The notes beneath the pieces are model-generated. The model saw only the letters and a program-made list of their open reading frames with translations. It was not told the DNA's origin and did not search any database. Both the position numbers and the translations under genes were made by a program. Below, piece after piece: positions 540 through 13,739 of a stretch of DNA of 15,190 nucleotides. Numbering within the stretch: position 1 is the stretch's first letter; the number at the start of each line of letters is the position of its first letter. The DNA comes from an uncultured Candidatus Bathyarchaeia archaeon. Lineage in GTDB: Archaea; Thermoproteota; Bathyarchaeia; Bathyarchaeales; Bathycorpusculaceae. The stretch is taken from positions 1-15,190 of the forward strand of contig CAYVGZ010000038.1 in the NCBI GenBank assembly GCA_964450845.1, read 5' to 3'.

Positions 540-1880
540 TCACAACCCAGTCAACTTATGAACAAGCGTATCGACGCGTCTACTAGCCGGGATTTTTGCT
601 CTGCCAAACTTTTCCTTCGGCTTGGTAAATGGTCTAGTCGCATCAACACCCATCTTACTCGTCAAGCCCGTCTCTTGATCGGCAGAAGAATCTAACGTCG
701 AGCCACGCACATTCTTTATAACAAGCAGGTCTTCGCTGGCTTGGAAACGAGTTGCAATAGCCCATTCAACATCAGAAACATTAAACACGTCAATGTCAGA
801 ATCCACAACCACAGCATGTTTTAAACTTGGGTGTGCCGCAAAAGCAGCCAACAAAGCATTTTTTCCGTCGCCGTCAAGCTGTTTTTCAATGGATATTATG
901 GCGTGAAGCCATCCGCTTCCACCAACAGAAAGGTTAACCATGTAGACTTTCGGCACAACCTTTGAAACAGCATCCCAAATCAAAACTTCGTGCGGCAAAC
1001 CCATAAGAAGCCTATGTTCCGCTCCAGAAGGCAAAAGCGCCTGATAAACATAATCTTTCCTATGCATAACCCCCATAACTTCTACAATGGGCTGTTTTCT
1101 TTCAATGTCGTACGTTCCAGTTATATCTACAAAGGGTCCTTCAGCGACTTCTTTTGTCGCGGAGATTTTGCCCTCCAAAACCAATTCAGCCTCTGCAGGA
1201 GCATAAGCATCTACATTTTCACACTTAATTAAGCGGAGATTATTACCCATCAAAGCGTTTGCCACTTCAAATTCATTGACGCCAAAGGGAACAGGTGAAG
1301 AAGCCGCAAGCATGATTGCTGGATGAACACCAACAGAAATTGCCACTTCCAAGTCTTTACCGACCTCCTTTGCCATCTGCCACAACTTGAAAAGATGGCG
1401 TGGAACCAAACGAATTGCCAGGTGTTTCTTATTCAAAACTTGAAGGCGATGCACTGAAACATTCTCAACTTTTCCATCGATGCTTCTTGCATATACAACT
1501 GCCGAAGTTATGTATGGACCATCATCTCTTTCAAAATGTGTTAAGACTGGAATCTTTGACAAGTCATTTTCAACAATTTCTTTCACTGTGCTCTCCCCAA
1601 CAATTTTTGGTTTTCGTGGCGAACGCCAAGCATCCATCAACTTTCGATAAAGTTTATCATGATTAACGTTAAGCGCTGCACAAATTCTCTTCCGAGTTCC
1701 GCAAACGTTGGCAGCAATCTTTGTTTCATAATTTTTTACTTTTTCAAAAAGAAGGATTGCGTCTTGGTTGTCAAAGCGCTTCATTATAAATGGAATTTCA
1801 AAACGTGTGGACACTTCGTCTTTTACGTGTAAAATTTCTTTTTTCGTTTCTGCTTGCTTAAGAAATTCTCTAAGGCTCAT
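540..1880 (-). CDS. ubiD: UbiD-family prFMN-dependent decarboxylase, probably anhydromevalonate phosphate decarboxylase (archaeal modified mevalonate pathway)
   Basis: 446 aa. UbiD motifs SVHRLQV, GVHPA, EGPFVDITGTYD, HAVVVDSDID, EWAIATRFQ and KMGVDAT are present. The blocks EGPFVDITGTYD and GDGKNALLAAFAAHPSLKH match my recollection of the archaeal MJ1133-type subfamily. The family call is firm; the substrate is inferred. Confidence 0.88.
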   Translation of the reverse strand: MSLREFLKQAETKKEILHVKDEVSTRFEIPFIMKRFDNQDAILLFEKVKNYETKIAANVCGTRKRICAALNVNHDKLYRKLMDAWRSPRKPKIVGESTVKEIVENDLSKIPVLTHFERDDGPYITSAVVYARSIDGKVENVSVHRLQVLNKKHLAIRLVPRHLFKLWQMAKEVGKDLEVAISVGVHPAIMLAASSPVPFGVNEFEVANALMGNNLRLIKCENVDAYAPAEAELVLEGKISATKEVAEGPFVDITGTYDIERKQPIVEVMGVMHRKDYVYQALLPSGAEHRLLMGLPHEVLIWDAVSKVVPKVYMVNLSVGGSGWLHAIISIEKQLDGDGKNALLAAFAAHPSLKHAVVVDSDIDVFNVSDVEWAIATRFQASEDLLVIKNVRGSTLDSSADQETGLTSKMGVDATRPFTKPKEKFGRAKIPASRRVDTLVHKLTGL

Positions 1881-2248
1881 GTGGTTGTTCCTTCTTTTTC
1901 CTGTTCTTTGTGGACAACTTTTTCAATTAACTTCATAAGAATTGATTGAGCTCGCATTTCGTCGATTGTTTTCAGATAAATGGAAACTAGCGCTATTTTT
2001 CCTTTTTTCGAAGCTAAATACTCAGCGAACATGCGGGCTGAAATTGCGTTTTTATCGCCTAAAAGAATGGATGATGAAGCTGGCCCTAACAAGTCTCTTG
2101 GTTTTGGGACAGCAATTGCCAGCGTTCCAAGTTTGTCTTCGTTTTCGCTGAGTAAAATTAGACATGCGTTATTTGTTTCCATGTACACTGCTAGAAAATG
2201 CATGTTTTGCTCAATTATCTCGTCTTTAACAATCTTTGCGCGTTCCAT
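1877..2248 (-). CDS. Proteasome assembly chaperone 4 (PAC4/PSMG4)-like protein
   Basis: 123 aa. LGTLAIAV...SSSILLGD...FAEYLASKKGKIALVSIYL resembles recalled human PSMG4 (LRNLAVAM...STSLLGD...LAQRLARKTNKQVFVSYNL). GGAGA precedes the ATG, and the stop overlaps the ubiD start (ATGA). Confidence 0.6.
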   Translation of the reverse strand: MERAKIVKDEIIEQNMHFLAVYMETNNACLILLSENEDKLGTLAIAVPKPRDLLGPASSSILLGDKNAISARMFAEYLASKKGKIALVSIYLKTIDEMRAQSILMKLIEKVVHKEQEKEGTTT

Positions 2249-2310
2249 ATTGAAGTCTCCATTGCCTATTTATAGCTTCATAGATTCACTATTTATTGTT
2301 TTCAAAGGCG

Positions 2311-2976
2311 ATGCAACAAATGACTGAAAACCGTGCAGAAAAAATTCTGCAAATACTCCGAAAAACTTTCACGATGCCAGAATGGACAACCTCAAGCAAA
2401 AATGCATTTAAAACATTAATCGTAACAATAATTTCGCAAAACACCGCTGGCAGAAACACGGCAAAAGCCTTCGAAAACTTATCGAAACGATTCGAAATAA
2501 CGTCCGAAGTATTGGCGAATGCCAAAATAAGCCAAATTGAAGAACGTTTGAAAGTGGCTGGCTTGTATAGAGGTAAAGCTAAAGCAATAAAACAAACCTC
2601 AAAAATAATCCTTGAAAAATTCCACGGCAATCTAGAAGCAATTTTGTCGTTGCCCTTTGAAAAAGCAAGAAAAACACTTCTGCAACTTCCAGGAGTCGGA
2701 CCAAAAACAGCCGACGTCGTCTTGCTTTTCTGTTCGGAAAAACCAACAATCCCAGTAGACACTCACGTCAATCGTGTAGCAAAACGGTTAGGCTTAGCGC
2801 CTGCAAATGGAGACTATGAAACTATTCGTAAACGCCTTCAATCACTTTACGACGCAAAAGACTATTTAGCAGTTCATGTTTTGCTGATTTTGCTCGGTAG
2901 AAACTATTGCAGAGCTCGAAATCCCTTATGTAAGCAGTGTCCACTAAACTTACTTTGTCCATCAAAGCAGTTGTGA
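2311..2976 (+). CDS. nth: Endonuclease III (HhH-GPD DNA glycosylase/AP lyase with a [4Fe-4S] motif)
   Basis: IISQNT, HhH motif LLQLPGVGPKTA with the catalytic Lys, VDTHV with the catalytic Asp, and C-x6-C-x2-C-x5-C (CRARNPLCKQCPLNLLC). The start is ATG 2311 or 2320 (track: TTG 2296). Confidence 0.93.
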   Translation: MQQMTENRAEKILQILRKTFTMPEWTTSSKNAFKTLIVTIISQNTAGRNTAKAFENLSKRFEITSEVLANAKISQIEERLKVAGLYRGKAKAIKQTSKIILEKFHGNLEAILSLPFEKARKTLLQLPGVGPKTADVVLLFCSEKPTIPVDTHVNRVAKRLGLAPANGDYETIRKRLQSLYDAKDYLAVHVLLILLGRNYCRARNPLCKQCPLNLLCPSKQL

Positions 2977-3018
2977 GGTAAAATGAGGCTTGGACAAACA
3001 TTTCGGACTTGCATTTCT

Positions 3019-4335
3019 TCAAAAAAGTTTTCTAAGCGCTGCGAACTCTGATTGGTTTTCTTCTGTAAAATTCGGAATTTCTTTTAGGTTTTTGTCCAGT
3101 CTAACTTTTCCTAGAGCAACTATCGATATTTCTTTTGTGACGGGAGTTAAAACCTTTAGAGTTTTTCTTGCGTAGTCGACCTCTTTTAAAACGCCTATGC
3201 CTAGGAATTTTTTCTCAACATTATATAAAGCTATGAGTGTGTCTTCCTCTTCGCCCTTCCGAGTCACAACAATCTTCTTCTTCGCGAATTCTTCAACCTT
3301 CTTTATGTTGTCCTCGTCAATCCAGCGTCTTCTACCAATAACTATGAAAATTTTATCCTTCAGTTCCGCAAGGTGCAGTGGTTTCATTCCTAGAAGTTCA
3401 TAGATTTTCCTTGCCTGTCTAGTGTTCTCATGTGTTTCGCCTAAGCCAAATAGTTCGTTTTCTTCAATCTTCACCCAGCTTAGCGGAAGAGATTGCACTT
3501 TTGCATTTCTCAAATATTTCGTGTATCCAAGTTCCCGCAAGTTTCTGCGTTTTTCTCTACTTCTTTGTTTTATAGCCGAAGGAGAATCAACAACAACCTT
3601 CACGAACTTTTCGAGGGCATTAAAGAAGGGTGTCAACTCGTCTTTTTGTTGAATGCAGAAAATTATATCTGGGTTAAGTTCCTCAATGAGTTGAACCTTA
3701 TAATTAACAGCCTCTTCTCCCTCAACCCAACCGTCAGTATTTATAACAATAAAATCTGGATTACTGCCTAAAATTTCTTTTTTCAGCGATGTTAAACCTT
3801 CAATAACTTTGCTCATGGCGATGCTTGGTGAAGTGACACCAACAAAGAAAGCATTTTTCTCTTCCAGATTAAACAAGTCCGTTATGGGCTTCGTTACGAA
3901 GTTATAGGCAACTGTACATGGTGGTCCTATGTCTGATTGACCTAAATCTCCATCTAAAATCGCAACTTTCCTTTTTTCACGTAGCAGCTTGTTTAGTAAG
4001 TATGTGCAGAAACTCGTTTTTCCAGAATCAACTGTGCCAAGCACTATTGCGGTAACAGGCTTCGCTTGAATTTTCAGAAGTTCTTCAAATGATTTCATCC
4101 ACGATGGTGGAATAGTGGTACCATCAACTTCTTCTACACTGGCATTTTCTCCTAACGAAATGTCAAACGTTGCTTTTTCCTCTACTACAAAAGGCAATCT
4201 CTTTCCCTCACGTATCACAACTTTTCTTGCGCCACCCATTATGGAGCCAAATACCTCTACCTTACCTGAAGACGCAATGACAGATGCTGGACCATCAACT
4301 AACAGAGTTTTACCGTTTTCAACCGTTCGATTCAT
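3019..4335 (-). CDS. clp1: Clp1/Grc3/Nol9-family polynucleotide 5'-hydroxyl kinase
   Basis: 438 aa. Walker A GTVDSGKTS, the family block LDGDLGQSDIGPP, INTDGWV, the lid motif RSREKRRNLRE, and a C-terminal FLGIGVL. Confidence 0.88.
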   Translation of the reverse strand: MNRTVENGKTLLVDGPASVIASSGKVEVFGSIMGGARKVVIREGKRLPFVVEEKATFDISLGENASVEEVDGTTIPPSWMKSFEELLKIQAKPVTAIVLGTVDSGKTSFCTYLLNKLLREKRKVAILDGDLGQSDIGPPCTVAYNFVTKPITDLFNLEEKNAFFVGVTSPSIAMSKVIEGLTSLKKEILGSNPDFIVINTDGWVEGEEAVNYKVQLIEELNPDIIFCIQQKDELTPFFNALEKFVKVVVDSPSAIKQRSREKRRNLRELGYTKYLRNAKVQSLPLSWVKIEENELFGLGETHENTRQARKIYELLGMKPLHLAELKDKIFIVIGRRRWIDEDNIKKVEEFAKKKIVVTRKGEEEDTLIALYNVEKKFLGIGVLKEVDYARKTLKVLTPVTKEISIVALGKVRLDKNLKEIPNFTEENQSEFAALRKLF

Positions 4336-4972
4336 TCATTTTCCTCCTTGGAAATGTTTGTCCATTTCTTCCAGCTATTCTTATAGCCGATACGATATCT
4401 CTCAGACCTCTTCTATGCTCAGTTTGATTTAAGTATCGGTCTGTCCCAGCTTCGCTCACACTTTCCAACATTATATTTGAAGGTAGTGCATCATCTAAAA
4501 CTCGTAAAAGTTTTTCATTGTATACAGGAACTCCGTTGCCAACTTTTACCGAAACCGAAGTTATCGAAATTTTCTGAAGGTTTTTCAAGATATTCTTTAT
4601 TTTATCTAATGTTTCTTCAACACTGAAACAGTTTCCTGTTTCAATGACTTTTCCATCGGCAAGAACTGCCACCCCAAAAACTTCGCCAGGGTCTACGCCT
4701 ATAACGATTTTTTCATAATATTCCTTTCCCCGAGTAATCTGTAATGCTTCATTTATCAATGCCTCTGGTTCTACTCCGTCATGGTACACCAAGATTTTTT
4801 CGTGATCCATTAGATGTTGCTCCTCTTTTGTGGTTATGACAACTTTGATTTCTATAGGGATAGTATCATTTGGAGTTAAGCTTATGAAAGGTATGTTCTT
4901 CCTTTTCAACTCATTGACAATTAAGTAATAGGCTTTTCCTGAAACAGTCGCAACAGCAATCTTCGCTTTCAT
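4319..4972 (-). CDS. Conserved archaeal protein with a C-terminal RNase H-fold (YqgF/RuvC-like) domain
   Basis: 217 aa. VIGVDPGEVFGVAV, KVGNG, VSEAGT and RDIVSAIRIA parallel the YqgF pattern (GxDxG...G.A / V.G.P / DERxT / D..AA.IL). Overlaps the clp1 start by 17 nt. Confidence 0.6.
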   Translation of the reverse strand: MKAKIAVATVSGKAYYLIVNELKRKNIPFISLTPNDTIPIEIKVVITTKEEQHLMDHEKILVYHDGVEPEALINEALQITRGKEYYEKIVIGVDPGEVFGVAVLADGKVIETGNCFSVEETLDKIKNILKNLQKISITSVSVKVGNGVPVYNEKLLRVLDDALPSNIMLESVSEAGTDRYLNQTEHRRGLRDIVSAIRIAGRNGQTFPRRKMNESNG

Positions 4973-5047
4973 ACTGCTTTCCTATTTGTGTATATGTTTG
5001 AACACAAAACAAATTATTAGTTTCGTTGTTTATATTCGTTGATGTGC

Positions 5048-5743
5048 ATGACCGTGGTACAAAAGATTCCAACAGGCTGTAGGACAATTGACAAGGTTCT
5101 AGAAGGAGGCATCCCCTTTGAAAGCGTTAGCTTAATCTATGGGGAAGCAGAAACTGGAAAAACAACCCTAGCCATACAATGTGCCATAAATTGTGCAGCG
5201 CAAGGTTACAAAACGTTATTTGTAGATTGCGACGGCACTTTTTCCACCAGAAGGCTTTCTCAGATTGCCTCTGACAGATTCAAAGAAATTGCAGAACTGA
5301 TAATTTTAATGAAACCCAACAATTTCCGCGAACAAACACTAGTTATAGACCAGTTAACAGATTATATAACTAAAAACTTCGGACTCGTAATTATTGATAC
5401 CATCACAACGCTTTATCGTGCCGAGATTGCAGAATTTCCAGAAAAAGCGTTTGAACTAAACCGTGAATTAAATAGGCAGATGGCATTGTTAGCGCAGATA
5501 GCCAAAACTCGGAAAATCGCTGTTTTAATGACAAGCCAGGTGCGAAGCGTTTTCAACGAGGCTCACGTAAGCATAGAACCAGTAGCCACAAGAGTCATAA
5601 AATTCTGGGCTGACACAATAATAGCTATGAAACCTACGGAAAACCTTGGAATAATCAAGGCAATTTTGGAAAAAAATCCAAAAAAGTCTCAGCCCTTAGC
5701 TTGCCATTTAAAAATAGGAGAAACAGGAATACACGAGCATTAG
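5048..5743 (+). CDS. radB: RadB-like RecA-family ATPase (RadA paralog)
   Basis: IPTGCRTIDKVLEGG, Walker A GEAETGKTT, Walker B VIIDTI, SQVRS. It has no N-terminal HhH domain, so it is not RadA. The start is uncertain (5039, 5042, 5048 or 5054). Confidence 0.78.
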   Translation: MTVVQKIPTGCRTIDKVLEGGIPFESVSLIYGEAETGKTTLAIQCAINCAAQGYKTLFVDCDGTFSTRRLSQIASDRFKEIAELIILMKPNNFREQTLVIDQLTDYITKNFGLVIIDTITTLYRAEIAEFPEKAFELNRELNRQMALLAQIAKTRKIAVLMTSQVRSVFNEAHVSIEPVATRVIKFWADTIIAMKPTENLGIIKAILEKNPKKSQPLACHLKIGETGIHEH

Positions 5744-5748
5744 GCTCA

Positions 5749-6264
5749 ATGATGGTTATGGAAATGGAAATAATAGAGCTAATTATTGAAGCATTAAAGT
5801 TCATTTTTCCTGCATACTGTGCAAACGCCATACCAGTAATTACTGGTGGGGGCTATCCTATAGATTTTGGAAAAACATTTTTTGATGGGAAACCAATTCT
5901 TGGGAAAAACAAAACCTTTCAAGGTTTCTTTTCTGGACTGATTATTGGAACTGCTGTCGGTTTAGTGGAAAGCGCATTTTTTGGTTATCCACTTTTGTTC
6001 GGTTTGTTATTATCTCTGGGGGCATTATTTGGAGACTTAGCAGGGGCTTTTGTAAAGAGAAGACTTGGGCTTGCTTCTGGTGATCTTTTGCCAGTTATCG
6101 ACCAAATTGACTTCATAATCGGCGCAATTCTGTTTGCACTTCCACTTTCCTTACAAATCTTGTCTTGGGAGCTTATCCTAGCAGTGCTAATTATAACTCC
6201 TCCTATACACTTGCTAACGAATTTTGCAGCGTACAAACTGGGTTTAAAAAATAATCCCTGGTAG
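5749..6264 (+). CDS. carS: CDP-archaeol synthase (CDP-2,3-bis-O-geranylgeranyl-sn-glycerol synthase)
   Basis: PAYCANAIPV, PIDFGK...DGKPILGKNKTFQG, GDLAGAFVKRRLG and DQIDF are CarS signatures, and the protein has several TM segments. The start is one of ATG 5749, 5752, 5758 or 5764; the TTG at 5701 lies inside radB. Confidence 0.92.
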   Translation: MMVMEMEIIELIIEALKFIFPAYCANAIPVITGGGYPIDFGKTFFDGKPILGKNKTFQGFFSGLIIGTAVGLVESAFFGYPLLFGLLLSLGALFGDLAGAFVKRRLGLASGDLLPVIDQIDFIIGAILFALPLSLQILSWELILAVLIITPPIHLLTNFAAYKLGLKNNPW

Positions 6265-6269
6265 GCTTA

Positions 6270-6686
6270 TCAACTGGTTTTGATTTGTATCTCAACTTCA
6301 AGGAATATGTACGCCAATAGTAGAAGAACTGTTCCTACTATAAACATCATGTAAGCTTGTCTTGGTCTGTATGCGTATTTTGTGCTTTGATATATGGCTA
6401 TTAATCCAACGGTGCCAAGTGAGTATAGAATCATGGCAGCAACGCTGTCAGCTATAAATTGTTCTGAAAGGCTTGGATAGACTAAGACGAAGCGCCCTTG
6501 AGAATAAACTGCTGAATAGGGCTTCACCGCTAAGTCATATAGACCGCCTCCAAACAAAAATATCGCGATACCAATAGCGATTATTGAAAGAACAAAAGTT
6601 GACGGTTTCACTGTTGAGATTTTCCGATATAATCCATTTAAGGAATAAGACATTGATGAGATTTTTTTCTTAACCATTCGTGACAT
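6270..6686 (-). CDS. OSTC/DC2-like (OST3/OST6 transmembrane family) three-TM membrane protein
   Basis: PSTFVLSIIAIGIAIFLFGGGLYDLAVKP...SEQFIADSVAAMILYSLGTVGLIAI...MFIVGTVLLLLAY parallels recalled human OSTC ([29 protein letters not shown]...[25 protein letters not shown]...LLFIGFVCVLLSF). The start is ATG 6686 or 6677. Confidence 0.72.
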   Translation of the reverse strand: MSRMVKKKISSMSYSLNGLYRKISTVKPSTFVLSIIAIGIAIFLFGGGLYDLAVKPYSAVYSQGRFVLVYPSLSEQFIADSVAAMILYSLGTVGLIAIYQSTKYAYRPRQAYMMFIVGTVLLLLAYIFLEVEIQIKTS

Positions 6687-6903
6687 TTTGTTTTTCCTCA
6701 TTTTTAATTAAGTATTCCGCAACTTCTTTAGCCCATTCTCCTGTTAAAGAATTCTTGACAACCTCGCTTAAATACTCTTTCCAAGAGATTTTCAGAGCCC
6801 TTTTCCAAGCATCATATTTTTCAATGATTTTTCCATAGGCTTTCATGTGCAACTCACAATAACTGTTTTCGCCAGCTTCCCTGCTGCAGATTTTACAGTT
6901 CAA
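6670..6903 (-). CDS. Small putative Zn-binding protein (C-x2-C...C-x2-H), function unknown
   Basis: 77 aa, beginning CKIC...YCELH and followed by a Trp/Tyr-rich helical segment. It has a TTG start and overlaps both topA and the OSTC-like gene. Confidence 0.72.
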   Translation of the reverse strand: MNCKICSREAGENSYCELHMKAYGKIIEKYDAWKRALKISWKEYLSEVVKNSLTGEWAKEVAEYLIKNEEKQNVTNG

Positions 6904-8980
6904 TTTTTTTCCTCCTTTCCTCTTTTAGTGGGCACTTCGGATTGAAACATAGTGTCCACGGATGTCTTCCCTGTATTCGAACCTGAACCGTAGGCCAACC
7001 GCACCCACGACAGTTCTTTCCAAGCGGTCTAACGGTGCCTTTCTGTGGAAGTGGGAATGATGCTTTACATAGTCCTTTGAAGTAGTTTGTGCATCCAATG
7101 AAACGTTTGCCAGTTTTCCTCGAATAGATCATCATGAGTTTTCCTGTGTTACAGATGGGGCAGATGCCAATGGTTCTTTCTTCAAGTTTTGCCTTTTTTA
7201 TGGCGTTGCTTAGTTGTTCGCCGATTATCCTCTCTTTTTCTTTTAACTCGTCTGTTGCGGGTTTAAGGATTTCAACAGCTTCCAGAAGAATATTTTCTCT
7301 TTTTTCGCCGTTTGCTTGAATCTTATTCATTTTTTCTTCAAGTTCTTTTGTTAGTTTTATTGAAACAACCGTTGGGCAATATTTTTCCAAAACCTCAAGA
7401 ACCTCGAAGCCTAAATCTGTTACAATCATTCTTTCGTCTCTAGCATATTTTCTGTCATATAGTGTCTGTAAAATAGCCGCCCTTGTGGCTTTTGTTCCGA
7501 TTTCTGCTTCTTCCATTTTTTTAAGGAGACTACTTGGGTTATATCGTGGTGGCGGTTTAGCGAACTTGTCCTCCAAAATTACTTTTTTGATGTTGATCGT
7601 TTGTCCCTCTTCTATTTGGGGTAATAAAACTTCTTCTGACCTTATGTAAGGTCCATAGAATCGTAGCCAACCTTCCTTTAAAGTTTGTCTTCCCCTTAGG
7701 TAAAAGCGATGCCCATTTACATTAATGCAGACTTTGATGCTTTGTCTTATGGCTGGTTCGCCAAAAACCGCCATAAACCTTCGAATGACAAGGTCCCAAA
7801 TGTTTCTTTCAGAAGTGTCTAGAACCCTTTCTGGCAATTTTCCAGTTGGATATATGGCTGGATGTGCTGGGTCTTCCTTCTTTCCTTCATTGGGCTTCAA
7901 TTCTGTTTTTGCAAGAAGTTCCGTTGCAGGTTTCTTATATTCAGGAACTTTGTTTAGGTTTTTCAGTATTGCCTCATAATTTATTGCTGGCGGGAGTTTT
8001 TGACTGCTTGTTCTCGGGTAAGAGATTAAGGCGTCTAGGTATAAGCGTTGAGCGATGTTTGAGGTTCGCATTGGTGTATAACCGAAGAGGCTGTAGGCTT
8101 CGCTTTGAAGGGTGCCTAAATCAAAGGGCACTGGTGGCATTTGCTGAAATTTTTTAACATCTATTTTCTCTGTTTTCCCGTCTTTTCCCTTACAGTTGTC
8201 AACTATCGTGTTTGCTTCCATTTTGGTTTCGATGATTTTCTTTTCGTATCCCGCCTCGAAAATTGAACCAGCTATATCGATTTCTGCTATTACGCTCCAG
8301 TAAGGGGTTGGCACGAAACATCTGATTGCTTTTTCTCTAGCCACGAGGAATCTGAGCGTTGGACCTTGTACTCTTCCAGTGCTTAACGTTGTATATTTTC
8401 CACTCCAATCCCTTGCCGCTATTGTTAATGCCCGTGAAAGGTTTATACCATAGAGCCAGTCAATTTCGTGTCTTGCGCGTCCAGCTTCTATTAGAGCAAA
8501 ATCCAAATGTGGCAACAGTTCAGCATAGGATTTCTCTAGTTCCTCTGTGGTTAGGGTGGAGTATTTCATGCGTTTTGAAATGCGTTCTTTGTTGTTGCAT
8601 GCGTATTTTAGTAAGCAATATCCGATAATGCTTCCTTCAATGTCGTAGTCACATGCGTCAATAAACATGTCAGCGTCATTTGCAAATTTTGAAATTGTTT
8701 CAAGCCATTTGCGGGTTTGTTTTGCATCTTTTTCGGCGTCATGCCTTGGCACCCATTCAAAATTGAAAATAGGGTAATAGTTTCTTCCGCTTCTTTCTGC
8801 AGCAACCGTGTATAAATGTCCCAAAGCTGGAATAACAACTATCTCCTTATCCCGTTTTGCCACATAATATGGTACTCCATTATGCTCCATTTTCTTTGCT
8901 TTTCCTTGTGCGTCAAGGGCAGAGGTTATTCTTTGCGCTGCATCTGGCTTTTCAGTGATGATTAGCGTGTACTTTTCCAT
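6893..8980 (-). CDS. topA: Type IA DNA topoisomerase with C-terminal Zn ribbons
   Basis: TOPRIM motifs ITEKP, GHL and DACDYDIEG; STGRVQGPTL; active-site ISYPRT; AHPAIYPT; IGTKATR; C-terminal CPIC...CTNY...C...CRGC...C.NPKC. The likely start is ATG 8980 (MEKYTLIITEKP), not 9037. Confidence 0.95.
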   Translation of the reverse strand: MEKYTLIITEKPDAAQRITSALDAQGKAKKMEHNGVPYYVAKRDKEIVVIPALGHLYTVAAERSGRNYYPIFNFEWVPRHDAEKDAKQTRKWLETISKFANDADMFIDACDYDIEGSIIGYCLLKYACNNKERISKRMKYSTLTTEELEKSYAELLPHLDFALIEAGRARHEIDWLYGINLSRALTIAARDWSGKYTTLSTGRVQGPTLRFLVAREKAIRCFVPTPYWSVIAEIDIAGSIFEAGYEKKIIETKMEANTIVDNCKGKDGKTEKIDVKKFQQMPPVPFDLGTLQSEAYSLFGYTPMRTSNIAQRLYLDALISYPRTSSQKLPPAINYEAILKNLNKVPEYKKPATELLAKTELKPNEGKKEDPAHPAIYPTGKLPERVLDTSERNIWDLVIRRFMAVFGEPAIRQSIKVCINVNGHRFYLRGRQTLKEGWLRFYGPYIRSEEVLLPQIEEGQTINIKKVILEDKFAKPPPRYNPSSLLKKMEEAEIGTKATRAAILQTLYDRKYARDERMIVTDLGFEVLEVLEKYCPTVVSIKLTKELEEKMNKIQANGEKRENILLEAVEILKPATDELKEKERIIGEQLSNAIKKAKLEERTIGICPICNTGKLMMIYSRKTGKRFIGCTNYFKGLCKASFPLPQKGTVRPLGKNCRGCGWPTVQVRIQGRHPWTLCFNPKCPLKEERRKKIEL

Positions 8981-9142
8981 TTTTGCACAAACCATGTAAG
9001 CGTAATGAAATGCTGGTTTTCCAGAATTAATTGTCATCTAAAATTAAAGTTTTGTGCCGAATTGTAGGGTGACAAATTCTGATTAGCAACCAATAAATAT
9101 GCCGTAGATGCTTATTTCTTACGTTGTGTGGAGTGTGTGGAT

Positions 9143-9307
9143 TTGCCCCAACGTGTTGTATGCCAACAATGTGGCTGCGTTTTATATGATGGTGCTGAAC
9201 TAAGACCACCCGACGAAATTTTACATGAGCATAATGGGAAATGCCCAAAGTGCGGCAAGAAACTTGCACTGATACCCATTAATGTCGAAGTAAAGCCAAT
9301 AAAATAA
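9143..9307 (+). CDS. Small Zn-ribbon protein (54 aa), absent from the ORF track
   Basis: Manual translation from TTG 9143 to TAA 9305-9307 gives (M)PQRVVCQQCGCVLYDGAELRPPDEILHEHNGKCPKCGKKLALIPINVEVKPIK. It has two CxxC pairs and an SD-like GGAGTG at 9130-9135. Confidence 0.82.
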   Translation: MPQRVVCQQCGCVLYDGAELRPPDEILHEHNGKCPKCGKKLALIPINVEVKPIK

Positions 9308-9332
9308 GATGTTGGCGCAGGAGCGAAAGATT

Positions 9333-10475
9333 TTGGCAGAAAAAATTCGCAGAATCCAACTTTATGGAGTGCATCAGCAAATCGCGAAATTGACGGTTTT
9401 TGCTGGTTTTGAAATGCCCATATGGTATAAGGGCGTAATACCCGAACATTTGACAGTGCGAAACAGCGTTGGCATTTTTGATATCTCCCACATGGGACGG
9501 GTAATAATTAATGGCGCTGACTCTGAACGTTTCCTAAACTACGTGATAACAAACGATGTTTCTAGGCTGGCGCCTAATAGTGCCCAATATTCAGTCATGT
9601 GTAATGAAAACGGCGGCGTAATAGATGACTTTGTGATATACAAGTTGGAAAAGGAAAAGTTCTTGATGGTTTCCAACGCAACCAACAGAGAAAAAGATTA
9701 CAATTGGCTGGTTACAAATGCTAAAGGTTTCAACGTAAAAATCGAAGAAATTTCAGACGACGTGACAATGTTCGCAGTTCAAGGTCCAAACGCTGAAGAA
9801 ACCCTTCAAAAAATTTCTACAGAAGATTTAAGCAAAATTGAACGGTTCAAATGTGCCCATTCACGATTGGCAAATGTCGATGCTTTTCTCTCTCGAACAG
9901 GGTACACAGGCGAGGATGGATTCGAAGTTTTCATATGGAATGCCTCTTTAACAAATCCAGATAAGGCTATAAAGTTGTGGAATGCAATCCTCGAAGCTGG
10001 CAAAACCTTCGGAATAGAACCATGCGGATTGGGAGCAAGAGACACATTAAGGCTTGAAGCTGGAATGTGCCTGTATGGAAACGACATTGATGAAAACACG
10101 ACTCCTTTAGAAGCCGTGCTAGGTTTTGTTGTGAAACTTCAGAAGGAAAACTTCATAGGAAAGGAGGCGTTGCTGAAACAGAAGAATGAAGGAATTAAAC
10201 GCAAACGTGTCGGAATACGGATAATCGAGCAGGGAATACCACGACCAAACTATGAAATCTACAGCGATAAAGGTGAAAATATAGGACGCATAACGAGCGG
10301 AACATTTTCGCCACTGCTTAAATGTGGCGTAGGAATGGCTTATATTCAAACTTCCCAAGCTCAAGAGGGAAACATCATAAATGTGAAGATACGCGATAAG
10401 CTGGCAAAGGGAAAAATTGTGCCTTTTCCGTTTTATGACGCTGAAAATTACGGTTACAAGCGGAAAACTACTTGA
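9333..10475 (+). CDS. gcvT: Glycine cleavage system aminomethyltransferase T
   Basis: FAGFEMPIWY, IFDISHMG, GGVIDD, AVQGP, SRTGYTGEDGFE, GLGARDTLRLEAG, ITSGTFSP. The start is TTG 9333 (AGGAG at 9319-9323) or ATG 9309. Confidence 0.95.
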   Translation: MAEKIRRIQLYGVHQQIAKLTVFAGFEMPIWYKGVIPEHLTVRNSVGIFDISHMGRVIINGADSERFLNYVITNDVSRLAPNSAQYSVMCNENGGVIDDFVIYKLEKEKFLMVSNATNREKDYNWLVTNAKGFNVKIEEISDDVTMFAVQGPNAEETLQKISTEDLSKIERFKCAHSRLANVDAFLSRTGYTGEDGFEVFIWNASLTNPDKAIKLWNAILEAGKTFGIEPCGLGARDTLRLEAGMCLYGNDIDENTTPLEAVLGFVVKLQKENFIGKEALLKQKNEGIKRKRVGIRIIEQGIPRPNYEIYSDKGENIGRITSGTFSPLLKCGVGMAYIQTSQAQEGNIINVKIRDKLAKGKIVPFPFYDAENYGYKRKTT

Positions 10476-10592: not shown

Positions 10593-12845
10593 ATGAGGAT
10601 TAGAGAAATCCTATCGAAAGAACATGTTGTCAACGGTCTGAAAAGCTTAGGAAAACTGCGAATTAAAATAAGCCATGGGTCAGTAATCACTTTTTCAGCA
10701 TTGCTACTCATACTTTTCGTAGCTTTCATTATACGCCTATTTCCAATAAAATGGGAAATACAAGCCGGTTCAATACACCTCTCAGAGTTTGATCCTTACT
10801 TTCAATATCGTTTCACAGAATACGTAGTAAACAACGGGTTTATCTCATGGGTTTGGCCATCCCCTGGATGGTATGACACGCAACGCTGGTACCCAAGTGG
10901 AATACACGCAACAACGGGATATCCAGGATTACCGTTTACAACAGCGTTTTTCTATAAAATAGTTTCAGCGTTGGGTGTAAATATTGAACTAATGGATTTC
11001 TGTGCACTTTTTCCACCCATAATGGGTATGCTGGCTTGCTTAGCAATGTATTTTTTGGGCAAGGACATTGGCGGAAAACCAGTTGGACTATTTGCATCCC
11101 TCTTTTTAGCCTTGAGTCCTTCCTACATTCAACGAACGTCCCTTGGGTTTTTTGATGACGAAACAATCGGAATATTTGCCCTTGTGCTGTTTGCATTCTT
11201 GTTTTTAAGAGCGATTGAAGAAAACAAGCCTCTGTCCTCATCTGTGAAATATGCAGTTGGCTCCGGATTGACTTTGGGGTATTTCTGCGCTGGATGGGGT
11301 GCCGCATACTACCCTCTCGGCCTTACTGTTCTTTTTGTTTTTGTGTTAATTTTGCTTAAAAGATACACGCAACAGTTGCTTCTGTCATATAGTTTAACTT
11401 TTGGATTAGGGTTATTTATTGCGATAAATGTTCCCAGACTCACGCCTTCCTATCTAACTACAATCGCCATTTTGCCTGTTGCAGGCGTATTCGTATTGCT
11501 CTGTTTCTGTGAAGTTCTCAAAGTTTTGACATCTGCAAGATCGAAGAGCATTTTTGCGATAGTTCTTCTGGGTGCACTGATTGGCGGCTTTGTTGTGATG
11601 TGGCAGCTTGGCTACATGCGAAGTATAGGATCAAAGTTTATCTCGGTTATTGACCCAATTATGCGGGCAGCCTCTCCACTTACAGAATCTGTCGCGGAAC
11701 ATCGAATAACAGCTTGGGGCTCCATATATTACGAGTTTGGCATAGGAATAATATTCTTTATAGCAGGCTTTTTTTTCATTTTGAGAAATCTTAGTAACAG
11801 AAACCTATTTCTCTTACTTTTTGGTCTAACATCCCTTTACTTCGCCGGTTCCATGGTGCGATTGCTCGTACTTGTAGCTCCAGCCATCAGCCTTCTGGCA
11901 GCTATTGGAATAATAGGAATATTAAAACCCTTTATCACATTGTTGAAGGAGCCACCTAAAATCTTAACGAAAAAAAAGTACAGCTTGGAACATGTTGGAA
12001 AAGAGTTTAGCGGGACCACAATCTTCTTAATTTTCATTATTTTAATGACAAACTTTGCCTTTTCACCTCAATCTGGCGGCATGCCTAGAGTATATAGGCA
12101 AGCCTACGTTCCAGTCACTATTTCCGCGAGTAGTCTTTCGTTAGTACCTAACCAGCCTGTAACAGCGTGGATGGATTCGTTGGAATGGATGAAAAATAAT
12201 CTTTCGCCTACGACCGCTGTTTGTAGCTGGTGGGACTATGGATATTGGCTAACAATCCTTGGCAATGTAACGTCTCTTGCCGACAACGCTACAGTAAATA
12301 GGACTCAGATAGGACTAATAGGAAGAGTGTATGTTTCGAATGAGGCTCAAGCAGTGAGAATACTTAAAGAACAATTTAACGGTCCTCATGGATCCCCTAC
12401 CTACATTTTGGTATTCGTAACATTCTATAGCACAGGCCAAGATGGTAATGCTGGGGGGGATGAAGGGAAGTGGATGTGGATGGCAAGAATCGCTAACTCG
12501 TCTAGAGCAGTTCGAGAATTATACGAGCAAGAATGGGGCGTATGGGAATATAATGAATGGGGAGCTGGCATGCAAAACAACACTTTTGGGAGCTATAATT
12601 CTACATCTGGCTTGTTCGAATGGAATAGTGTGGGAACAAACACGACGATTTACAAATTGATGGAGAACGCAAAAAGCTTTCAAATTTCAGGATACACTGC
12701 TCCTACACTTACATATTTCAAGAATCCGCGATTCTTCGGAGGTGAGGTAGCCTCGTATACAACAACATCAGGAACTACTGTGTATCTGGACGCGTTGGTA
12801 TGCCTATATGAAGTGGACTATGAAAAGTACGACTTAGACCACTAG
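10593..12845 (+). CDS. aglB: Oligosaccharyltransferase catalytic subunit AglB/STT3
   Basis: 750 aa with many TM segments. Motifs: EFDPYF, YPGL, YIQRT..GFFDDE, SVAEH, WWDYG, DNATVN and DEGKWMWMARIA (DK motif). Confidence 0.95.
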   Translation: MRIREILSKEHVVNGLKSLGKLRIKISHGSVITFSALLLILFVAFIIRLFPIKWEIQAGSIHLSEFDPYFQYRFTEYVVNNGFISWVWPSPGWYDTQRWYPSGIHATTGYPGLPFTTAFFYKIVSALGVNIELMDFCALFPPIMGMLACLAMYFLGKDIGGKPVGLFASLFLALSPSYIQRTSLGFFDDETIGIFALVLFAFLFLRAIEENKPLSSSVKYAVGSGLTLGYFCAGWGAAYYPLGLTVLFVFVLILLKRYTQQLLLSYSLTFGLGLFIAINVPRLTPSYLTTIAILPVAGVFVLLCFCEVLKVLTSARSKSIFAIVLLGALIGGFVVMWQLGYMRSIGSKFISVIDPIMRAASPLTESVAEHRITAWGSIYYEFGIGIIFFIAGFFFILRNLSNRNLFLLLFGLTSLYFAGSMVRLLVLVAPAISLLAAIGIIGILKPFITLLKEPPKILTKKKYSLEHVGKEFSGTTIFLIFIILMTNFAFSPQSGGMPRVYRQAYVPVTISASSLSLVPNQPVTAWMDSLEWMKNNLSPTTAVCSWWDYGYWLTILGNVTSLADNATVNRTQIGLIGRVYVSNEAQAVRILKEQFNGPHGSPTYILVFVTFYSTGQDGNAGGDEGKWMWMARIANSSRAVRELYEQEWGVWEYNEWGAGMQNNTFGSYNSTSGLFEWNSVGTNTTIYKLMENAKSFQISGYTAPTLTYFKNPRFFGGEVASYTTTSGTTVYLDALVCLYEVDYEKYDLDH

Positions 12846-12866: not shown

Positions 12867-13739
12867 TTGTTTCCCAAAGTTTCTGACAATCATAAGACGA
12901 ACAAGCCTTTAGTTCCGAACGGGTTAGGCGTAATATTTGTCATAGTGAGCGCAACCTATCTCTTTCTATTATATTATAATTTCCAATTAACAAAGGATTT
13001 TGATAATGCTTCTCGAGCGTTAACTTTGGCTGTTTGTGTCTTATTTGGAGGTTTTATGGGTTTGCTTGATGATTGGATGGATTTGCGGTGGCGTTATAAG
13101 GCTTTCTTTCCGCTAATAGCTGCAATACCACTTATTTCCTTAGCCATAAGTCTCGGATTGCGTACACATATGACGGTTCCAGTTTTTGGCACAATAAATT
13201 TTCATGACTCTTATTATTTCCTAATTATTCCGCTAATTGTAACCGTAACTACTAACACTGTGAATCAGCTTGGAGGTTTGAACGGTTTAGAAACAATATG
13301 TCCCGCAATAGTCATAATTGGACTAATGGCTGTCTCAGGATCGAACGCTGTTCTATTATACGTTCCCTTAATCGTGTGGCTTTTGCTCGCCTTTTTTAAT
13401 TTTCAAGGCAAAATTTTCGTTGGCAACACCGGGTCTTTTGCCATTGGAATGACCTTGGCTTCATTTGCAATTATTTCAGATACAAAAACTGTTCTGCTGA
13501 TTTCCATTTTGCCTTACATTTTTAACTCTTCCCTGATTTTGTTGACTTATTTCTTTTTCAGAAAAAAGGCAGCTGTCTCTTTTGATGGTAAAAAACTGTT
13601 TTCGGACCACAGAAGGAGTCTTATTACCCTTGTTACTCATCATCGTCACTTGACTGAGCGGCAGGTAGTTGTAATAATTTCACTTTTGGTGGCGGTTTCA
13701 ACTTCTGCTGCTTTGTTCGTTCAATGGCTGTTGATATAG
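12867..13739 (+). CDS. Polyprenyl-phosphate HexNAc-1-phosphate transferase (GPT/AglH/DPAGT1; MraY/WecA superfamily)
   Basis: KPLVPNGLG, GLLDD...WRYK, NTVNQLGGLNGLE, KIFVGNTGS and DHRR. SD GAGGT (12855-12859) precedes the TTG, and an in-frame TGA at 12861 fixes the start. Confidence 0.87.
   Translation: MFPKVSDNHKTNKPLVPNGLGVIFVIVSATYLFLLYYNFQLTKDFDNASRALTLAVCVLFGGFMGLLDDWMDLRWRYKAFFPLIAAIPLISLAISLGLRTHMTVPVFGTINFHDSYYFLIIPLIVTVTTNTVNQLGGLNGLETICPAIVIIGLMAVSGSNAVLLYVPLIVWLLLAFFNFQGKIFVGNTGSFAIGMTLASFAIISDTKTVLLISILPYIFNSSLILLTYFFFRKKAAVSFDGKKLFSDHRRSLITLVTHHRHLTERQVVVIISLLVAVSTSAALFVQWLLI

Follow-up and report, generated by a model that had tools for sequence, protein, structure and literature searches.

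Does AglB, the archaeal oligosaccharyltransferase (OST), have accessory membrane subunits outside the Asgard archaea? In archaea, AglB is taken to work as a single subunit, and accessory OST subunits are usually listed among the Asgard-specific 'eukaryotic signature proteins'. A small gene found near aglB in a 15,190-nucleotide stretch of DNA from an uncultured Candidatus Bathyarchaeia archaeon (hereafter, the window) bears on both points. An earlier note, made from the sequence of this stretch, had read its product as an OSTC/DC2-like accessory OST subunit and had implied that such a subunit would be new in a non-Asgard host.

Among published studies, that of Lombard (2016) found no prokaryotic candidates (PMC4973528), and prokaryotic Ost1 and Ost3 homologues were described as Asgard findings by Eme et al. 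(2023; PMC10307638). More recently, Carilo et al. (2024) stated that TACK archaea, like eukaryotes and Asgard archaea, have OST1 and OST3/6 (PMC11417166). The host of the present gene is indeed non-Asgard, since NCBI taxonomy places the class Bathyarchaeia in the kingdom Thermoproteati, and the closest named homologues of both the OSTC-like protein and the OST1-like protein described below come from Candidatus Bathyarchaeia/Bathyarchaeota MAGs. The genome assembly, 93% complete, totals 1.64 Mb over 120 contigs. The DNA is best matched by a hot-spring metagenome, from which it may derive, and no RNA data set was listed for the locus.

A conserved gene with homology to OSTC/DC2 and OST3/6

The frame was listed as 6270-6701 on the minus strand (143 aa), and the start conserved in homologues is an internal ATG at 6686 (MSR...), which yields a protein of 138 aa (Table 1). 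The protein contains the motifs FGGGLYDLAVKP, EQFIADS and GTVG and a lysine, K136, followed by TS. The length of about 138 aa, the three hydrophobic segments and the motifs GGGLYD..V.P, QFIAD, G..G and Lys that the earlier note had listed were thus all found, the lysine being near-terminal rather than terminal.

Table 1. Coordinates of the features discussed, as positions in the window or, for the OST1 homologue, on a second contig of the same genome
Feature	Position	Strand	Description	Evidence
CDP-archaeol synthase (carS)	5701..6264	(+)	Convergent with the OSTC-like gene	Pfam CarS-like 9.9e-45
OSTC/DC2-like gene	6270..6686	(-)	138 aa, three TM helices, without thioredoxin domain	ORF, conserved start, profile, AF2 fold
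77-aa ORF	6670..6903	(-)	N-terminal CxxC...CxxH knuckle	No Pfam family
Topoisomerase IA (topA)	6893..9037	(-)	First gene of a probable transcription unit	Pfam Topoisom_bac 2.3e-119
gcvT	9309-10475	(+)	Between topA and aglB	
AglB/STT3	10593..12845	(+)	Only copy in the genome	Pfam STT3 1.6e-46
GT4-family (MraY/WecA/Alg7-type) polyprenol-phosphate sugar-1-phosphate transferase	12867..13739	(+)	Directly after aglB	Pfam Glycos_transf_4 2.9e-21
OST1/ribophorin I homologue	contig C5, L004:793-2523	(+)	576 aa	PF04597 30.8 bits, cut-off 25

Homologues of the 138-aa protein are numerous (1341 at E<=0.01), and a profile search of 1.84 billion cluster representatives returned 241 relatives at E<=1e-3, mostly of 110-190 aa. 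From these relatives we drew a diverse alignment of 75 sequences with 19-70% identity to the query. The motifs named above proved to be the most conserved positions of this family: G47 and G94 are found in 100% of the sequences, Q76 and G118 in 97%, K136 in 96%, Y50 in 85%, and G48 and G91 in 84%, while position 80 is acidic in about 92% (E, or D as in the Bathyarchaeia protein). These positions align with the same residues of human OSTC, namely GGIIYD, GQYIMEG, GGLG and MKL. The ORF at 6270-6686 is a real, strongly conserved gene, and strong purifying selection on it has been shown.

Any small hydrophobic helical bundle might resemble OSTC by convergence or by chance, and some of our data could be taken in this sense. 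In a single-sequence Pfam scan of the 138-aa protein the OST3_OST6 family (PF04756) came out on top, matched over model positions 173-288 of 294, with a score of 19.5-20.2 bits (E 5e-4 to 7e-4) that lies below the curated gathering cut-off of 27, an operational threshold and not a biological feature. Furthermore, a first AlphaFold2 (AF2) model, built from 26 close homologues, reached a pLDDT of 61 without any Foldseek match, and helical bundles often reach middling Z-scores.

We nevertheless find a chance or convergent resemblance scarcely credible, contradicted as it is by the profile E-values, the aligned invariant positions, the structural Z-scores and the intermediate sequences. When the profile of the 26 close homologues was run against all 177,635 PDB sequences, human OSTC was the sole match (E 5e-7). 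With the 75-sequence profile, human OSTC was the top match (E 1.6e-18, residues 15-145 of 149), followed by MagT1 over TM2-4 (E 2.8e-6) and yeast Ost3 (E 0.53), with scores of 70, 30 and 13 bits, respectively; judged by sequence, MagT1 and Ost3 are much more distant from the family than OSTC is. PF04756 was matched individually by 62 of the 75 homologues, always at about model positions 173-288 and with a best E of 6e-13. Moreover, homologues linked to the 138-aa protein by BLASTP exceed the Pfam cut-off (47.8, 35.1 and 33.8 bits), among them the Lokiarchaeota protein TXT65921.1, annotated 'OST3 / OST6 family protein' (47.8 bits; 31% identity, BLASTP E 3e-10), and the homologue from Infirmifilum (33.8 bits; BLASTP E 2e-10). 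For a 70%-identical homologue, the protein clusters carrying PF04756 come from Bathyarchaeota and Promethearchaeota only. An NCBIfam scan of the 138-aa protein gave no match.

The structural comparison points the same way. The 75-sequence alignment gave an AF2 model with a pLDDT of 93.1 and a pTM of 0.78, predicted to consist of an N-terminal helix (8-25), TM1 (30-54), a beta-hairpin (60-67), TM2 (78-101) and TM3 (108-137). The top 10 Foldseek matches of this model were all OSTC (9N9J, 8B6L, 8PN9, 6S7O, 6FTG), yeast Ost3, Ost6 or MagT1, with target-normalised TM-scores of 0.53-0.84 and an rmsd of 1.7-2.5 Å for the best ones, after which E jumps to 0.5. Likewise, VIA-align, which is independent of Foldseek, ranked MagT1 (Z 13.4), OSTC (12.7), Ost6 (10.8) and Ost3 (9.2) first, so that all four clear matches belong to the family and Z then falls from 9.2 to 7.0.

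Taken together, the profiles and the modelled fold make a solid case that the 138-aa protein is a true homologue of OSTC/DC2 and of the TM module of OST3/6. The colinearity with OSTC/DC2 that had been proposed from the sequence extends over nearly the full length of OSTC, and the proposed homology to the TM region of OST3/6 is upheld both by the profile match to TM2-4 of MagT1 and by the fold matches to Ost3, Ost6 and MagT1.

Averaged over the family, lysines and arginines together number 8.6 in the N-terminal part, against 1.3 in loop 1 and 2.3 in loop 2, which is 8 residues long. Since the N-terminal part and the TM2-TM3 loop are basic and the long loop has few such residues, the N-terminus lies inside and the C-terminus outside, in agreement with the lumenal C-terminal tail of DC2 (PMC5674889). 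The N-terminal helix is basic and cytoplasmic, the short beta-hairpin belongs to the outside loop, and the near-invariant lysine sits on the outside C-terminus. The match of the 138-aa protein to PF04756 is confined to the C-terminal part of the model, the protein has no other domain, and no thioredoxin domain was found among the archaeal family members scanned. Therefore, the architecture is of DC2 type, with three TM helices, N-terminus inside and C-terminus outside, and without a thioredoxin domain.

Longer archaeal forms add unrelated cytosolic N-terminal parts such as HEAT repeats or a zinc ribbon. In one metagenomic fusion of 341 aa, a zinc ribbon and HEAT repeats, both cytosolic, precede the OSTC-like 3-TM module (PF04756, 35 bits), which suggests that some archaea may add a cytosolic docking domain to the OSTC-like subunit. 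Public pipelines have named members of this family 'energy-converting hydrogenase Eha subunit C/H', 'TRAP-type C4-dicarboxylate transport permease small subunit' or 'divalent metal cation transporter'. Because of the homology to OSTC, these labels are probably mis-annotations.

Other OST components of the genome and the spread of the gene

The AglB encoded in the window carries the motifs EFDPYF, FFDDE, SVAEH, WWDYG and DEGKWMWM (DK-type), as well as a eukaryote-style double sequon, NATVNRT, shortly after WWDYG; a double sequon has been reported for TACK and Asgard AglB (PMC8993221). Among proteins of solved structure it is closest to canine and human STT3A (E 2.6e-72 to 4.4e-72), STT3B and yeast STT3, and the match to AglB of Archaeoglobus fulgidus is far weaker (E 7.6e-9, 38 bits vs 247 bits for STT3A). 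By these comparisons, this AglB is eukaryote-like, far closer to human STT3A than to the characterised euryarchaeal AglB. The GT4-family transferase encoded directly after it probably initiates the assembly of lipid-linked glycans.

A search of the whole genome for further subunits, as the earlier note had advised, was successful for ribophorin I/OST1 and for none of the other subunits it had named (DAD1, WBP1/OST48, OST4). As read from its sequence, the OST1-like protein would start with a signal peptide and have a large outside domain, joined by one TM helix to a helical tail in the cytosol. A profile of its family matched human RPN1 (E 1.9e-6; residues 236-522 to 271-558), and its tail matched the cytosolic domain of OST1 from the Asgard archaeon MK-D1 (PDB 8WHN; E 1e-8 to 3.3e-9), a domain that pulled down ribosomes (PMC11417166).

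In this 93%-complete genome, no credible Pfam match was obtained for DAD1/OST2, WBP1/OST48, OST4 or OST5, of which the very small OST4 and OST5 may easily escape detection, nor for SWP1/ribophorin II, for which the ribophorin II control matched nowhere. The subunits that a full eukaryote-type OST with subcomplexes I-III would require beyond those described above were thus not found. Neither KCP2 (PF09775) nor TRAP-beta and TRAP-gamma were detected in the same genome, and the intergenic ORFs of the window include no Ost4-like single-TM mini-protein. Two further sub-threshold matches to PF04756 (contigs C37:5192-5590 and C59:1512-1754) cover model positions 3-154 only, that is, the thioredoxin part, and are probably ordinary thioredoxin-fold proteins; one of the two has an in-frame TAA.

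The OSTC-like gene is present as a single copy in 192/201 sampled Bathyarchaeia genomes (119/121 of the high-quality ones) and was found in 173 of 301 genomes sampled across the phylum. Outside Bathyarchaeia, many families in the 301-genome sample are fully positive, and several large ones have no match or marginal matches only. Named carriers are Infirmifilum sp. NZ, Methanosuratincola, Caldarchaeum subterraneum, Culexarchaeum and Thermoprotei MAGs. The gene is therefore a near-universal core gene in Bathyarchaeia and is widespread in other TACK lineages. The OST1-like protein is conserved across most Bathyarchaeia families and was detected in three further families; it was found in far fewer lineages than the OSTC-like protein, its profile being narrow.

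These findings bring us back to the question of novelty. The homologue of Infirmifilum sp. NZ (Thermofilaceae; WP_318536540.1) had already been named 'OST3/OST6 family protein' by NCBI and, with the statement on TACK OST1 and OST3/6 in PMC11417166, this means that the presence of the family in non-Asgard TACK archaea is already known, from the literature and from annotation. The novelty implied in the earlier note was therefore overstated, and the value of the finding is limited accordingly. What is new concerns the Bathyarchaeia: the near-universality of the gene in the class, its DC2-type architecture, closer to OSTC than to OST3/6, its co-occurrence with an OST1 homologue that keeps a tail matching a ribosome-binding domain, and a quantified linkage to aglB.

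Gene neighbourhood and possible functions

The 77-aa ORF overlaps the topA stop by 11 nt, and its own stop overlaps the start of the OSTC-like gene by 17 nt; because of these overlaps, topA, the 77-aa ORF and the OSTC-like gene are probably co-transcribed. We considered the 77-aa ORF as a partner of the OSTC-like protein and dropped it, since in relatives it directly follows topA even where topA lies 8 kb away from the OSTC-like gene. It may instead encode a topoisomerase-associated small protein. The intergenic region between topA and gcvT holds a further small ORF of 59 aa (9128-9307, plus strand) with two zinc-ribbon-like CxxC pairs, which ends at the gcvT start.

The aglB start at 10593 lies 3.9 kb from that of the OSTC-like gene, on the opposite strand and with gcvT in between, which agrees with the distance given in the earlier note. 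The block (radB-carS> <OSTC-like / 77-aa ORF / topA, then aglB-GT4>) is kept within the taxonomic order of this genome, and the aglB-GT4 pair is conserved in relatives. In most genomes of this order the divergent region of topA is directly followed by aglB; in the window and in one relative, gcvT separates the two, a local rearrangement in an otherwise frozen block. On the carS side, synteny with the OSTC-like gene extends throughout the order for a housekeeping block (540-6264 of the window: UbiD-like, a 123-aa ORF, EndoIII, Clp1-like kinase, YqgF-like, RadB and CarS), and its RadB-CarS core is kept beside the gene across several classes.

We found aglB within 10 kb of the OSTC-like gene in nine of the 12 loci from the same taxonomic order (there at about 3-4 kb), in 0/8 loci from other Bathyarchaeia orders and in 8/18 loci from other classes of the phylum, or 17/38 in total. 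The loci from other classes show several different arrangements, among them aglB and the OSTC-like gene as direct divergent neighbours, 0.3 and 0.55 kb apart. This recurrent proximity is far above the chance expectation, which by our own estimate is about 1%. On the other hand, the most persistent neighbours of the gene across the phylum are carS and radB, which are unconnected with glycosylation and more consistent than aglB, so part of the aglB-linkage signal is frozen synteny. The linkage may be inherited synteny, the 3.9 kb distance reflects an inherited gene block, and the OSTC-like gene and aglB do not form an operon.

Given the steadiness of carS and radB, which flank the gene in most loci, one might think that the OSTC-like protein partners not AglB but the metabolism of polyprenol or membrane lipids, or else a different membrane machine, for instance SecYE-beta or YidC alone. 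We regard this as distinctly improbable: carS is convergent with the gene and thus not co-transcribed with it, radB has no membrane role, and the presence of Clp1 and YqgF-like genes in the same block fits frozen synteny and not shared function. In addition, we know of no member of the OST3/6-DC2 family that works with lipid synthases.

Alternatively, the protein may be a true OST3/6-DC2 homologue that acts independently of AglB, for example as a small oligomeric protein of cation (Mg2+) transport or membrane homeostasis, as once proposed for MagT1/TUSC3. The transporter idea survives in the Pfam title, 'OST3 / OST6 family, transporter family', the gene stands outside any aglB operon and is not linked to aglB in over half of the sampled lineages, and about half of the sampled phylum lacks it, whereas AglB is regarded as near-universal among Archaea. 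We still consider this alternative unlikely, because in every matched solved structure the module is an OST subunit lying against STT3, because a 3-TM protein with no conserved intramembrane charges save E/D80 is a poor candidate for a transporter, and because aglB turns up nearby in different arrangements, at a rate well above that estimated for chance.

Based on homology, conservation and gene neighbourhood, we think it fairly probable that the OSTC-like protein partners the single, STT3A-like AglB in the membrane, without a catalytic role of its own. As such, it would pack against the TM helices of AglB, as DC2 does on STT3A and TM2-4 of Ost3/MagT1 on STT3/STT3B, and it could stabilise AglB or its groove for the lipid-linked glycan. 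Together with the OST1-like protein, it might further keep AglB close to both the ribosome and the SecYE-beta channel, which would allow chains to be glycosylated as they emerge. This coupling to the translocon is considerably less likely than the role as an AglB partner. KCP2, with which DC2 cooperates where it touches Sec61, was not found, and purified AglBs, euryarchaeal as well as crenarchaeal, are active alone.

If AglB, the OSTC-like and the OST1-like proteins do form a complex, a multi-subunit, translocon-associated OST would be older than the Asgard archaea, and the archaeal 3-TM protein would offer a simple model for the action of DC2 and Ost3 in the membrane. A broader scenario, which we put forward tentatively and hold to be rather doubtful, is that the TACK-Asgard ancestor already had a three-part OST docked to ribosome and translocon, consisting of an STT3-like AglB, a 3-TM subunit of DC2 type and an OST1 whose tail binds ribosomes. 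The thioredoxin-less DC2 form would then be ancestral to the OST3/6 family, eukaryotic DC2 would be a direct archaeal descendant rather than something that arose late in animals or plants, and co-translational N-glycosylation would be older than the Asgard archaea.

Comparison with known OST systems

In eukaryotes, OSTC/DC2 is the STT3A-specific subunit of OST-A (PDB 6S7O chain H, 8B6L, 8PN9, 9N9J). Human OSTC resembles the archaeal protein in size (149 vs 138 aa), in its three TM helices, cytosolic N-terminus and lumenal or outside C-terminus, and in having no thioredoxin domain. The two share 21-23% identity and superpose with an rmsd of 1.8-2.5 Å (Z 12.7), and GG-x-Y, Q-x-x-x-E, G-x-x-G and a C-terminal K are common to OSTC and the archaeal family. 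Unlike OSTC, which resides in the ER, the archaeal protein would be located in the cell membrane, and no KCP2 homologue was found in its genome. DC2 mediates the docking of OST to the Sec61 translocon together with KCP2, and its reported range among eukaryotes is limited to animals, multicellular plants and Dictyostelium (PMC5674889).

The second group of relatives comprises Ost3/Ost6 and MagT1/TUSC3 (6C26, 6EZN, 7OCI, 6S7T), whose TM2-4 superpose on the three archaeal helices, as exemplified by MagT1 (Z 13.4, rmsd 1.5 Å over 103 residues). In contrast to these proteins, the archaeal one has neither the lumenal thioredoxin domain nor TM1.

The Asgard OST3/6 homologues, such as TXT65921.1 of Lokiarchaeota, belong to the same family, carry the same 3-TM module and are retrieved by the same profile, but they are longer (about 180 aa vs 138 aa here) and have an N-terminal extension. 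The Bathyarchaeia genome differs from the Asgard ones in that TRAP-beta, TRAP-gamma and the further OST subunits reported there (PMC10307638) were not detected, while it has the same three-part complement as the OST1-OST3/6-STT3 set of MK-D1 (PMC11417166).

Finally, the proteins of other TACK archaea, including WP_318536540.1 of Infirmifilum, BAJ50548.1 of Caldarchaeum subterraneum and those of Methanosuratincola and Culexarchaeum, are members of the same family by profile and by BLASTP (E 2e-10). Such TACK homologues are often encoded close to aglB; at 116-132 aa they are shorter, and their sequences have diverged much further. Compared with them, the Bathyarchaeia clade shows unusual conservation, many genera sharing about 70% identity, and its OSTC-like protein co-occurs with a detectable OST1-like protein.
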